From: an uncultured Candidatus Saccharibacteria bacterium
GTDB taxonomy: Bacteria; Patescibacteriota; Dojkabacteria; JAHIVN01
Assembly (NCBI GenBank): GCA_964572065.1
Contig: CAZNER010000036.1
Span: forward strand, 7,289-20,067
Direction of reading: 5' to 3'
DNA length: 12,779 nucleotides
Shown in pieces: positions 7,154 through 12,374 of the stretch. Each line of letters begins with the position of its first letter. Within the stretch, counting starts at the first letter, position 1. Below the pieces are notes generated by a model that searched no databases, was not told where the DNA came from, and was given only the letters and a program-made list of their open reading frames with translations. A program made the position numbers and the translations under genes.

Positions 7154-7534
7154 TCACCCTAATATTTTCTCTATTAAATTTAGTCTTTTAATTGGTTTTA
7201 AATCTCTAGCAAACGCTACTTTACTTGATTCCTTTATTAAACAGTCATATTTCTTCATGGGGATAACCTTTATATTAACTGATCTATCTACAAAACATAT
7301 TTTTCCATTACTTATATTAGATTGCATTTTATATTTACCATTCTCTTGTTTAACTTTATTGAAATATAATACCTCTCTCTTATGTTTATTTGTTAATCCA
7401 TCATGAACTTCCTTATGACATTTATCACATAGGGGTATTAATTTATTCTTCAAAGGTTTCAAATGTTTAGGTATTGCATGATGTTTCTGTACCTTATTTT
7501 CACTACCACATCTCCAACATTTAGCTTTAACCAT
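7154..7534 (-). CDS. HNH endonuclease (126 aa)
   Basis: The N-terminal CWRCGS ... HHAIPKH ... N ... LCDKCHKEVH forms a canonical HNH/zinc motif. Confidence 0.8.
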   Translation of the reverse strand: MVKAKCWRCGSENKVQKHHAIPKHLKPLKNKLIPLCDKCHKEVHDGLTNKHKREVLYFNKVKQENGKYKMQSNISNGKICFVDRSVNIKVIPMKKYDCLIKESSKVAFARDLKPIKRLNLIEKILG

Positions 7535-9491: not shown

Positions 9492-9607
9492 GGTTTATGA
9501 TATTTGCTATCACATTTACAAGGTTCTCCTATTAGGTGCATAGGTGTTACAGATATAAACCCCCACATAGCTCCACATTTCTTACACTTAGTCCAATATA
9601 AACCCAT
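9461..9607 (-). CDS. small zinc-ribbon-like protein (48 aa), found by hand
   Basis: Translation is MGLYWTKCKKCGAMWGFISVTPMHLIGEPCKCDSKYHKPCNSIGEFIE*. TAATG overlaps the upstream stop, and ATGA overlaps the downstream start. Confidence 0.4.
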   Translation of the reverse strand: MGLYWTKCKKCGAMWGFISVTPMHLIGEPCKCDSKYHKPCNSIGEFIE

Positions 9608-9849
9608 TATATCACATCTCCAAAGCAATACTCAAAGAAACTAACTTTATGATTTATTTTCATACCTTCATAGAAATCACTATAATGTTTTGGTTGCTCT
9701 TCCATTAACTTTGCTGGATTATCTTTATATTTATTATAAAATTCAACAGCTGATTTGACATCGTTTTTAGTAAAATAAATGTGATTATCAATTGGGTCAT
9801 CTTCATCTACTCTTTCATCTATAATTTTCTCTCTTAAAGGTTCACACAT
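9607..9849 (-). CDS. hypothetical protein (80 aa)
   Basis: Complete ORF that overlaps the 3' end of the methyltransferase gene by 16 nt. Confidence 0.55.
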   Translation of the reverse strand: MCEPLREKIIDERVDEDDPIDNHIYFTKNDVKSAVEFYNKYKDNPAKLMEEQPKHYSDFYEGMKINHKVSFFEYCFGDVI

Positions 9850-11339
9850 AATTTCTCTCCTATAGCTTTTATTACATTCACCGTAACAGCATTACCTAAT
9901 TGTCGATATCTTTGTGTATCAGATATTAATATATCAGGTAGATTTCCTATTACAGTTTTCTTTATACCATAATCTTTCATAATTTTCTTACAATGTTCAC
10001 AACAATAATAATGTCCAATAAGATGCAGGGTTCCACCTTTAGCATTCTTACCAGCTTTCTTACAAGCTGAGACTTCTGCATGTTCTACTTGTCCACATAT
10101 CTCTTTACAGAGTTCGTAGCCTGTACCCGTCTTAAAACCAATCCTCGGGCATTTCTGTTGTGGTGTTAGACATTCATTGTAACCAAACCAATACTTACCA
10201 TTATTCTCTATGATAGCAACAACTGTTTGTTTAACACATCTTCCCTTAAAATTCATAATTGGGGTTCCATACTTAGTCCAATCATCTGGGAATCCTTGAA
10301 GTCTTTCACATTCAACGGGAGTTAATCTTCTTAGTTTATCATATTGATTACAGATATCCCAAGAGTGTCTATCTACGCTACTTCTTCCACCACTCCTTAC
10401 TGTCTTGGATATTATAACTCCATCTCTATCTTGGTTATTTAAAGTAAAGGTTGCTTCATCAGGCTCTTTAACCCATCTACCTTCTTGTCTTGGTTTTCTA
10501 TCGGGTGTCTTTACTGATCTAGCTACACCTTGATTCATACCAACATCAAGACAATAAGCTTCGTCTTCCTTACCTATAGTTCCATAACCACCAGGATAGG
10601 ATTTACCCTCTTCTCTAGCTTTAACCATACAAGGTCTATCTAATCCTCTCTTTTGTGTATTCATAACTATAGGTACATTGTGTCCACCTGTTCCCATATT
10701 TTGGGTTAAGGTTGGACTACCTTCATGTTCTCTTATTTCATTTGCTCTATGGGCTTTGTATGTTTTTCCTTTAGATACTTCTTGAATCTTTCTTGCATCT
10801 TCTCTGAAAGGTAATACTTGCTGTCTACTTCCTCCTCTAAGATATCCGATAATGAAGACACGTTCTCGGTTCTGGGGTACTCCGAAAAATTTGCTGTTAA
10901 GTACCATCCATTCAACTCTATACCCCAATTCATCCAACGTTTGAAGGATGACTTTGAAAGTTTCCCCTTGTTTGTGATTGAGTAACCCCTTGACGTTTTC
11001 AAGGAATACAATCTTAGGTTTTTTAGCTTTAATAATTCTTGCAATTTCAAAAAAGAGAGTTCCTCGGGTATCTTTAAAACCTCTCCGGTGTCCAGCAATT
11101 GAGAATGCTTGACAAGGAAATCCTCCACAGAGCATATCAAAGTCTGGTATTTCTTCTGGTTTGATTTTTGTGATATCTGTTGGTTCATAACATTCACCAT
11201 AATTTTTATTATATACTGATACTGCATACTTATCTATGTCACAGTACCATACAAATTTATATTTATCCGATGCTTCTTGTAGTCCCTTACGGAATCCACC
11301 TATACCACCAAATAAATCTGCTACTCTTATCTCATCCAT
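9834..11339 (-). CDS. DNA (cytosine-5)-methyltransferase with an inserted dCMP/cytidine-deaminase-like zinc domain (501 aa)
   Basis: The C5-MTase motifs are all present: I FGGIGG (residues 10-15), IV GFPCQAFS (catalytic C76), VI ENV (113-115), VIII QNRERVF (156-162), IX RRLTPVECERLQGFPDDW (337-354) and X QLGNAVTVNVIKAIG (480-494). Between motifs IX and X, at residues 366-465 (nt 9945-10244), sits VVAIIENNGKYWFGYNEC..C..C..CGQVEHAEVSAC..GGTLHLIGHYYCCEHCKKIMKDYGIKKTVIG. This matches the ComEB/dCMP-deaminase pattern GYNG ... HAE ... PCxxC ... GIKKVVY. Confidence 0.9.
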   Translation of the reverse strand: MDEIRVADLFGGIGGFRKGLQEASDKYKFVWYCDIDKYAVSVYNKNYGECYEPTDITKIKPEEIPDFDMLCGGFPCQAFSIAGHRRGFKDTRGTLFFEIARIIKAKKPKIVFLENVKGLLNHKQGETFKVILQTLDELGYRVEWMVLNSKFFGVPQNRERVFIIGYLRGGSRQQVLPFREDARKIQEVSKGKTYKAHRANEIREHEGSPTLTQNMGTGGHNVPIVMNTQKRGLDRPCMVKAREEGKSYPGGYGTIGKEDEAYCLDVGMNQGVARSVKTPDRKPRQEGRWVKEPDEATFTLNNQDRDGVIISKTVRSGGRSSVDRHSWDICNQYDKLRRLTPVECERLQGFPDDWTKYGTPIMNFKGRCVKQTVVAIIENNGKYWFGYNECLTPQQKCPRIGFKTGTGYELCKEICGQVEHAEVSACKKAGKNAKGGTLHLIGHYYCCEHCKKIMKDYGIKKTVIGNLPDILISDTQRYRQLGNAVTVNVIKAIGEKLCVNL

Positions 11340-11603: not shown

Positions 11604-12374
11604 TTATACTCCTAATACTTTATAAACATACTCTTGTAGTTTATGAGTCTTATTAAATTTCTTATTCATTATCTCTATATGTTCATCTAAGAAATCTTCT
11701 ATGTAACTCTCAAATTCATGTATGTGGGATATTATATCCTTTTCTCCACCTTGTTCCTTTATCTCTATAACTTCCCAGAGTTTATCCTTAACATCTTTAG
11801 GTAAGGATACTTTCTCTACGGTTTCTTTAAATCTTATAGGTGGTACTTCAAGATATTGTTCTACGTATTTAGCATTAACTAATCCTCTCATGGCATAAAG
11901 ATACTTCTTATGTGTCATTAGCTTTTCTGATTTGAGGTAATTAAGATAGTTATTCTTACACATACTCTTATAATGATAATATAATGATATTGGATTAAAG
12001 TGTTTATTCATTATCTTTTTTAAATGCTCCTTACTCCACCCATCTTCAGTATATATTATGTCACAGTTAAGCCACTCTATTACTGAAGGATTACTACTGT
12101 TCAGGAGTCTTATGAATTTGTATAAATCAAATCCAACAAAATCATATATTCCATCTGTCTTATCAATAACATCTCTTGGAGGATGAATTTTCAGATAATC
12201 TTTTTTATCTCTTACATACACAAACCTAATGTCATAGTCGGAGTCCTTACTCTCAATCCTCCAAGCTCTGCTACCTGATTCTACAGCAAATAATATTCTT
12301 ATATTATACTTTTGCTCCAAATCACCTAACGTATTTATAATATCATAGTCTATATCTATACTCCTTTCTGACAT
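11604..12374 (-). CDS. Pol-beta-superfamily nucleotidyltransferase (COG3541-like), 256 aa
   Basis: The N-terminal AVESGSRAWRIESKDSDYDIRFVY is the hG[GS]x9-13 D-x-D nucleotidyltransferase signature. It is characteristic of the predicted-NTase family that is often linked to RNA-repair and tRNA-related loci. Confidence 0.75.
   Translation of the reverse strand: MSERSIDIDYDIINTLGDLEQKYNIRILFAVESGSRAWRIESKDSDYDIRFVYVRDKKDYLKIHPPRDVIDKTDGIYDFVGFDLYKFIRLLNSSNPSVIEWLNCDIIYTEDGWSKEHLKKIMNKHFNPISLYYHYKSMCKNNYLNYLKSEKLMTHKKYLYAMRGLVNAKYVEQYLEVPPIRFKETVEKVSLPKDVKDKLWEVIEIKEQGGEKDIISHIHEFESYIEDFLDEHIEIMNKKFNKTHKLQEYVYKVLGV

Follow-up and report, generated by a model that had tools for sequence, protein, structure and literature searches.

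The DNA analyzed here is a stretch of 12,779 nucleotides (positions 7,289 to 20,067 of contig CAZNER010000036.1; hereafter the window), and the gene under study, that of a marine phage, encodes a DNA cytosine-5 (C5) methyltransferase that carries a small deaminase domain within its polypeptide chain. The open frame lies on the minus strand at 9834..11339 and specifies a protein of 501 residues, P0001, in which motif IX of the methyltransferase is followed by the inserted mini-deaminase and only then by motif X. The pairing of a DNA 5-methylcytosine (5mC) methyltransferase with a cytosine-type deaminase in one natural protein is apparently undescribed: as a first-pass annotation of the sequence had supposed, no description of such an architecture was found in the open-access full-text literature.

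A C5 methyltransferase with an inserted deaminase domain

The first-pass annotation had called the product of 9834-11339 a Dcm-type C5 methyltransferase, and the profile scores bear this out, at 293.5 bits against PF00145 (cut-off 22) and 327.3 bits against TIGR00675 (cut-off 100.65), with the motifs that it named all present. The catalytic domain recognized by the two profiles (residues 1-180, 10800..11339, on the minus strand like all features of the gene) holds motif I (DLFGGIGGF), motif IV (P75-C76-Q77, 11109-11117), motif VI (ENV, E114-N115-V116, 10992-11000) and motif VIII (Q156/R158/R160). Between motifs VIII and IX lies a variable target-recognition region (residues 181-335, 10335..10799) that aligns poorly. 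Motif IX, which reads RRLTPVECERLQGFP, falls in a segment (residues 336-358, RRLTPVECERLQGFPDDWTKYG, 10266..10334) that is nearly invariant in alignments A1 and A9. Motif X and the C-terminal helix (residues 472-501, ISDTQRYRQLGNAVTVNV..., 9837..9926) include G482-N483-A484-V485 (GNAV) and are 70% identical to the C terminus of P0272, a close methyltransferase relative without the insert that is encoded on viral contig L026.

P0001 shares with M.HhaI, M.HaeIII and Dcm (PF00145) all of the ten-motif landmarks of C5 methyltransferases that were checked. Its catalytic domain, modeled at a predicted local distance difference test (pLDDT) score above 90, folds like M.HhaI and M.HaeIII, which are its top fold matches, and motif X with the C-terminal helix is likewise above 90 in the full-length model. 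P0001 differs from these enzymes in its long target-recognition region, which is of low confidence in the full-length model (pLDDT below 50 at residues 192-232 and 249-317), and in the hinge between motifs IX and X, which unlike theirs holds a 113-residue deaminase. From the intact motifs we infer that the methyltransferase half is an ordinary, active S-adenosylmethionine-dependent DNA cytosine-5 methyltransferase. In a separate group of C5 methyltransferases (P0008, P0009, P0012, P0013 and P0014), the IX-X region contains a second copy of motif IX (RRLTPxECERLQGF twice) and no deaminase, and three of the five have an N-terminal RadC/JAB domain (PF04002).

The extent of the insert follows from a comparison of P0001 with P0272, which runs from GFPDGWTEG directly into ISDTQRYKCLGNAV (GFPDGWTEG/ISDTQRY). 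At the same junction P0001 has GFPDDWTKYG, 113 extra residues and then ISDTQRYRQLGNAV, so that the insert comprises residues 359-471 (9927..10265) and lies exactly between methyltransferase motifs IX and X. The earlier estimate of about 100 residues at 9945-10244 was right in position and too narrow in its boundaries. Residues 370-465 pass the PF00383 (dCMP_cyt_deam_1) threshold narrowly when the whole protein is scanned (25.8 bits, cut-off 25), and residues 355-480 scanned alone reach 29.9 bits (E 5.5e-7), in a profile search of the kind that the first-pass annotation had recommended. The insert is not a chance match, since a profile of it recovers 902 cluster representatives, and P0001 is not an assembly chimera, because the same protein was called on five contigs, three of them shown to come from three separate samples, and the insert region is spanned by contigs of two sequencing runs. 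A phage contig of about 135 kb also carries P0001.

Structure prediction with AlphaFold2 gave a deaminase fold for the insert, with a pLDDT of 93.1 for the domain alone and above 90 within the full-length protein. The modeled elements are, in order, strand 1, strand 2, a cysteine-rich zinc-binding insert, helix 2 with the HAE motif, strand 3, helix 3 with the CxxC motif and strand 4, after which the chain runs directly into motif X. The sheet of the model has four strands rather than five; strand 5, helix 4 and most of helix 1 of the canonical dCMP (deoxycytidine monophosphate) deaminases are missing. The description of the insert as a complete cytidine deaminase domain consequently holds by the standard of its own family and not by that of the canonical enzymes.

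The catalytic center of the insert is intact. H420-A421-E422 (10074..10082), comprising a zinc ligand and the catalytic glutamate, and C447-x-x-C450 (9990..10001), the two remaining ligands of the catalytic zinc within the stretch HYYCCEHC, are found where the first-pass annotation had placed them and are invariant in alignments of 67 (A3) and 70 (A4) sequences. A second, structural zinc site is predicted at C368, C397, C411 and C415 (10095..10238), all four of which are invariant. Three of these cysteines (C368, C397 and C415) align with cysteines of the Streptococcus mutans dCMP deaminase, the solved structure that is most related to the insert by sequence.

An exhaustive structural comparison placed dCMP deaminases first, with Z scores of 7.7 for 2HVV, 7.4 for 4P9C, 7.4 for 1VQ2, 7.2 for 7FH4 and 7.0 for 2W4L; guanine deaminase and RibD ranked just behind. 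Nearly all of the 23 matches at Z ≥5 have the deaminase fold, the one exception being AICAR transformylase/IMP cyclohydrolase. Foldseek gave a probability of 1.00 for a deaminase-fold match, and a family profile searched against the PDB again returned dCMP deaminases on top (2hvv at E 5.6e-8). The predicted deaminase fold and the intact HxE/CxxC zinc center place the insert in the PF00383 superfamily, and its relatives by fold and profile uphold the original identification, between motifs IX and X, of a zinc deaminase like the dCMP deaminases and ComEB. The insert has no counterpart in PHROGs, and a megablast of the whole window against the phage collection returned no hit. DddA, DddB and the APOBEC/AID enzymes share the superfold and the zinc chemistry of the insert, but their structural match is much weaker (Z 2.8-4.8, against 7.0-7.7 for the dCMP deaminases): 4.8 for DddB, 3.5 for DddA and 2.8-3.1 for AID/APOBEC.

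The mini-deaminase family and its linkage to methyltransferases

A family profile built from the P0001 insert and four relatives was searched against 1.84 billion proteins and matched 902 cluster representatives at E ≤0.001, 471 of them at ≤1e-10. Most of the 902 are free-standing proteins of 100-145 residues, and the family, which we call the mini family, is mostly viral. By sequence and by fold it is closest to the dCMP deaminases (T4 Cd, the ComEB-like S. mutans enzyme 2HVV, S-TIM5 4P9C, PBCV-1 bi-DCD 7FH4 and human DCTD), with which it shares the HAE/CxxC site and the second zinc site. It is a hallmark of the dCMP-deaminase/ComE group to have such a second site in an insert before helix 2, together with a cysteine before strand 1 (PMC3239186). 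The mini-deaminases are smaller, however, at about 100 residues against 140-190; helix 4 and strand 5 are missing from them, as is the tyrosine that follows strand 4, and their second zinc site is made up of four cysteines, whereas that of the dCMP deaminases uses cysteine and histidine. The dCMP-deaminase/ComE signatures NxxP, NA and TxxxT are absent or altered: P0001 has N388-x4-P393, HAEVSA and TLHLI, and only A425 is conserved. Free-standing mini-deaminases of about 100-135 residues stop directly past strand 4, and many start at the first cysteine. Since these free-standing members too stop after strand 4, the mini family is, as judged by its sequences, a distinct minimal branch of the dCMP-deaminase clade and not a truncated copy.

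The invariant positions in the alignments of 67-70 members are C368, N388, C397, C411, C415, H420, A421, E422, C447 and C450, and K370, G386, P398, R399, G405, Y408, Q417, G442 and H443 are nearly so. The invariance of HAE and CxxC in these relatives indicates that catalysis is under selection. It also bears on the idea that the domain is a noncatalytic structural or DNA-binding zinc module, the fusion adding only bulk or DNA affinity, for which one could cite the missing parts of the canonical fold and the basic character of the inserted copies. Decayed enzymes usually lose the catalytic glutamate first, and here that glutamate, the three zinc ligands, N388 and Q417 are invariant or nearly so in 67-70 diverse sequences that include the inserted copies; we consider a noncatalytic module highly improbable.

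The nearest cellular relatives found are deaminases of 150-212 residues from Patescibacteria (Saccharibacteria, Nomurabacteria and Paceibacteria) and from the metagenome-assembled genome (MAG) of one archaeon, a Woesearchaeota member. None of their loci (L119-L135) has an adjacent C5 methyltransferase. When three of them (163-170 residues) were compared with Pfam, their matches extended over almost the whole PF00383 profile.

Other domain combinations occur within the family. P0137 (232 residues, locus L009:396-1094, on a 1.3-kb contig) has a Vsr-type T:G mismatch endonuclease (PF03852, 53 bits) fused to the mini-deaminase; the idea that such fusions are common among the proteins of about 220 residues was rejected, P0137 being the only one. 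In a subfamily of that size (P0153, P0168, P0187, P0189, P0194, P0196, P0224 and P0250), the mini-deaminase is preceded by an N-terminal domain of about 110 residues for which Pfam gave no match and Atlas no score above 0.84. Four longer proteins (P0147, P0154, P0162 and P0188, 418-607 residues) share an N terminus beginning MKTIDT, and their long region has no Pfam or PDB match. In Xanthomonas phage Pfeifenkraut (ON189044.1, 37950-38255, locus L006), a mini-deaminase frame runs on the strand opposite to two annotated hypothetical coding sequences. The annotation of Pfeifenkraut at these positions is probably wrong, because the homologous frame in the sister phages Langgrundblatt1 and Langgrundblatt2 is annotated as a cytidine or dCMP deaminase.

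The homolog search that had been proposed to find the same insertion elsewhere was successful, and P0001 is not a one-off: a deaminase lies inside a C5 methyltransferase in at least 15 further protein clusters, to which abutting genes are to be added. Among the best 150 of the 902 representatives, ten are full-length PF00145 methyltransferases in which some 35 residues separate the domain from the C terminus, that is, at the motif IX-X position. P0149, P0193 and P0185 are C-terminal pieces in which motif IX is followed by the deaminase, with motif X present afterwards in P0185, and the insert is also present in P0002-P0005. P0004 and P0185 come from another methyltransferase lineage, with a GNAVVPQ-type motif X, and in P0128 the deaminase stands ahead of motifs IV and VI, which is a second insertion position. 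In a tree of the deaminase domain (about 119 columns, poorly resolved), the well-supported branches require the fused forms to have arisen at least twice, parsimony would have up to nine origins, and the gene-adjacent forms are scattered.

The two modules also occur as separate, coupled genes. P0271, a free-standing deaminase of 103 residues that is 64% identical to the P0001 insert, is encoded immediately upstream of P0272 with an overlap of 13 nt, so that two modules that are neighbors in one phage form one polypeptide in another. A complex prediction for P0271 and P0272 scored 0.00, was run without controls and counts neither for nor against binding. When two genes on each side of the mini-deaminase open reading frame were clustered for 75 distinct IMG/VR contigs, the dominant neighbor family was the C5 methyltransferase, present on 18 of the 75 and the nearest gene on 16; the next largest family occurred on 3, and the fused form was found in one further contig. 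The neighboring methyltransferase is always on the same strand, at gaps of -17 to +108 nt, mostly overlapping or a few bases apart. Among the species-representative genomes of prokaryotes, every one of the nine closest matches is linked to a methyltransferase, seven of them as abutting genes; of the other two, L116 is a split methyltransferase and L113 (611 residues) a fusion. One of the seven abutting pairs belongs to the genome of a cultured Sphingomonas isolate (Sphingomonas sp. TREG-RG-20F-R18-01, locus L114), which offers a host for experiments. The recurrence of the pairing as insertion, split gene and abutting genes argues that selection keeps the two activities together.

Linkage is not universal. 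A strict dependence of the mini family on a phage C5 methyltransferase was considered and rejected, as two complete phage genomes have none. In five large phage records the mini-deaminase is the sole PF00383-like gene in four; a C5 methyltransferase occurs in two and is absent from two complete (jumbo-phage) genomes, ThyA occurs in one and ThyX is represented by one weak match. On contigs where no methyltransferase abuts the deaminase gene, the nearest genes include those for a deoxynucleoside monophosphate kinase (3), MazG (3), a dATP/dGTP diphosphohydrolase (2) and an AAA_33 kinase-like protein (2), as well as for DNA polymerase A, RNase H, RuvC, DnaB and a D5-type primase-helicase. A search for alignment columns that set linked deaminases apart from unlinked ones gave none above the permutation threshold. 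The mean net charge of the core is +3.0 in inserted and +0.4 in free-standing unlinked copies (Mann-Whitney p 0.002, uncorrected for relatedness); that of the P0001 insert is +7. In Stenotrophomonas phage Silvanus (MZ326867.1, locus L022), the deaminase homolog CPT_Silvanus_054 is followed directly by a gene of 207 codons annotated as a methyltransferase, whose product found no match in Pfam at E 0.001, so that methyltransferases outside the C5 class may be linked to the family as well.

Substrate of the fused deaminase

Since both of its catalytic centers look intact, P0001 would be one polypeptide with two active enzymes. We favor the view that it is a deaminase of deoxycytidine (dC) or 5-methyl-dC nucleotides attached to a methyltransferase, a reading drawn from sequence and models to which we give a probability of about 0.45. 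The insert would then be a zinc-dependent pyrimidine deaminase belonging to a phage-specific mini branch of the dCMP-deaminase clade. Its likely substrate would be free dCMP or dCTP, most plausibly in the 5-methyl forms, and its products dUMP or dTMP, or the corresponding triphosphates. The fusion would tie DNA methylation to the removal or recycling of (5-methyl-)dC nucleotides, whereby either the thymidine pool would be fed or 5-methyl-dC nucleotides released from methylated DNA would be kept from re-incorporation at the wrong places.

Both the nucleotide substrate and the preference for its 5-methyl form are things that we infer, on several grounds. Kinship with dCMP deaminases in sequence and fold, set against the weak match to DNA deaminases, favors a free nucleotide, as does retention of the capping zinc insert; the capping element is held to restrict the dCMP-deaminase pocket to a soluble base (PMC3239186). 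The same substrate is favored because free-standing members lie among nucleotide-pool and replication genes, because some members occur without any methyltransferase, and because no residue signature distinguishes the linked members. The PF00383 deaminases of uncultured phages are reported to be associated with cytosine-modified genomes and to have DNA polymerase A and a MazG-like pyrophosphohydrolase among their top co-localized domains, besides enzymes like thymidylate synthase; several of them, mSCD-B5 included, were shown to prefer 5-methyl-dCTP, and 5mC or 5-hydroxymethylcytosine in single-stranded DNA, over unmodified cytosine (bioRxiv 10.1101/2024.12.05.627091). Their proposed role is to make dTTP from 5-methyl-dCTP (bioRxiv 10.1101/2024.12.05.627091). 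With the repeated coupling to C5 methyltransferases and this published 5mC preference of related phage enzymes, 5-methyl-dC nucleotides are the most economical guess for the substrate of the coupled forms.

The mSCDs resemble the mini family in being uncultured-phage PF00383 proteins tied to cytosine methylation, with DNA polymerase A and MazG-like neighbors. Their partners, however, are thymidylate-synthase-like dCMP methylases, which act before replication, whereas the partner of the mini-deaminases is a post-replicative DNA C5 methyltransferase. The mSCDs are recognized by a location near a ThyA-like dCMP methylase or hydroxymethylase, and four of the five large mini-family relatives have no ThyA. 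The distinction between the two groups is drawn from the published description of the mSCDs, a study in which 284 candidates were assayed. The words "fusion" and "fused" do not occur in that report (bioRxiv 10.1101/2024.12.05.627091), and the methyltransferase-deaminase architecture is not listed in the reference classification of the deaminase fold (PMC3239186).

Several observations weigh against a free-nucleotide substrate. A nucleotide-pool enzyme has no obvious need for the hinge of a DNA-bound protein, yet the fusion arose at least twice and was kept. The greater positive charge of the inserted copies, relative to the free-standing unlinked ones, fits a place beside DNA, and the pocket of the family, in which helix 4, strand 5 and the tyrosine are all missing, may be more open than the canonical one. 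The characterized 5mC-selective relatives also act on single-stranded DNA (bioRxiv 10.1101/2024.12.05.627091), so that fold kinship is compatible with a DNA substrate.

The main alternative is DNA editing, in which the deaminase fixed at the hinge acts on DNA, turning 5mC into T or C into U within the targets of the methyltransferase or close by. The outcome would be site-directed C-to-T changes, or mismatches of the T:G and U:G kinds, which during infection would strike the DNA of the host or of a competitor. In its favor, the domain was inserted into a DNA-bound enzyme in at least two independent events and occurs in P0128 at a second position, before motif IV; an insertion into the hinge of such an enzyme is hard to explain otherwise. 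The tight coupling of free-standing copies to methyltransferase genes, the more basic inserted copies, the activity of phage enzymes of the dCMP-deaminase family on 5mC in single-stranded DNA, the loss of C-terminal elements found in canonical nucleotide deaminases and the Vsr-type T:G mismatch endonuclease of P0137 all point the same way. Yet fold and sequence are much closer to nucleotide deaminases than to DddA, DddB or APOBEC, and the capping zinc insert is kept. Members are present in complete phage genomes without a C5 methyltransferase and beside nucleotide-pool genes, linked members show no residue signature, the fusion to Vsr was met only once and on a contig of 1.3 kb, and editing at its own methylation sites would amount to self-mutation of the phage. 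We regard DNA editing as possible but less likely than action on nucleotides. Its more specific form, in which the tethered mini-deaminase would be a natural sequence-directed editor that makes T (or U) at the very site methylated by its partner, against host or rival DNA, we hold to be unlikely.

Base composition adds to the case against editing. The AT-rich context had been taken by the first-pass annotation as compatible with a C-to-T pressure, but the contig has a GC content of 30.4% and the MAG binned with it 31.3%. The CpG observed/expected ratio is 0.30 on the contig, compared with 0.54 +/- 0.14 on other contigs of ≥10 kb, and the TpG/CpA value is 1.01, without excess. In related loci CpG depletion tracks GC content, and methyltransferase-linked (0.90) and unlinked (0.84) loci do not differ, linked loci thus having no extra CpG loss. 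AT-richness is uninformative about the deaminase, given the similar GC content of contig and MAG, the absent TpG/CpA excess and the equal depletion of linked and unlinked loci; no CpG/TpG footprint of methylation-dependent decay was found on the contig or in related loci. In the four metagenome runs that contain the sequence, none of them of RNA, the Logan contigs, which are blind to rare variants, differ only by T>G, T>C and A>T changes at four places. Escherichia coli Dcm/Vsr and the Neurospora RID protein of repeat-induced point mutation likewise join cytosine-5 methylation with C-to-T deamination. They have no dedicated deaminase domain, although one mini-deaminase relative (P0137) carries a Vsr-type endonuclease, and the C-to-T change seen in those systems has no counterpart in a mutational footprint at the P0001 locus.

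Three functions had been proposed for the domain from the sequence alone. Nucleotide metabolism is the best supported of these and DNA editing is a less likely possibility, as discussed above, while a role as a toxin has no contextual support: the secretion domain and adjacent immunity gene of the DddA/DddB toxins are absent around P0001, where phage genes are found instead. A different possibility is that the domain acts on another small molecule, for example the adenine of S-adenosylhomocysteine, or tunes the methyltransferase by binding a nucleotide. The insertion point directly precedes motif X, which contributes to the cofactor pocket of C5 methyltransferases such as M.HhaI; adenine and guanine deaminases are among the fold matches at Z 6-7.5, and the methyltransferase linkage calls for some explanation. 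No positive evidence points to such a function, however, the best matches and the second zinc site are of the dCMP-deaminase type, and members exist without any methyltransferase, so that we think it quite unlikely.

Both chemistries of P0001 are well known, and it is their pairing in one natural protein that appears to be new. If the domain does clear or recycle 5-methyl-dC nucleotides, it would be a viral counterpart of the mammalian "epigenetic nucleotide sanitation" and would allow thymidylate to be made from cytosine without folate. If DNA is the substrate instead, P0001 would be a natural methylation-coupled base editor, and the free-standing members of 100 residues would be the smallest known DNA cytosine deaminases. 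Reagents for methylome sequencing that are selective for 5mC have already come from related phage enzymes.

Genomic setting

The window belongs to a contig of 20 kb that was binned into a MAG of 2.29 Mb. Its genes are small, lie on one strand and are phage-like, encoding among others an RlaP nucleotidyltransferase, a phosphoesterase, an HNH protein, GP88 and a Band 7 protein, and the setting of the P0001 gene is a phage early or replication gene block. Metagenomes of seawater and of sediment, from three studies, contain the sequence. A gene at 11604-12374 on the minus strand, a short way upstream of that for the methyltransferase, encodes a 256-residue RlaP-family nucleotidyltransferase of the RNA-repair type (PF10127, 204 bits), an arrangement shared by the other contigs that carry P0001.

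The relative P0003 is encoded in a T4-like block with gp32, a RecA/UvsX homolog and an SbcCD-type nuclease (SMC_N/AAA_23/Metallophos domains). Its fused gene is flanked by a TSCPD-domain gene and a gene resembling nucleoside 2-deoxyribosyltransferase (PF15891), followed by Fic, and this neighborhood may be a nucleotide-salvage cluster.

The sequence GATC is strongly avoided on the 20-kb contig, with 15 sites against 49.5 expected from base composition (Markov z about -10), and CATG and GTAC are also low. The avoidance of GATC suggests pressure from a GATC-cutting host restriction system. Metagenome contigs of several runs break or diverge at 9605-9638 and 11144-11171, and in runs X3 and X4 the methyltransferase gene has about double the summed contig depth of its flanks. 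From these breaks and the doubled depth, the methyltransferase-deaminase cassette seems to be common to more than one phage population, as would be produced by mosaicism.

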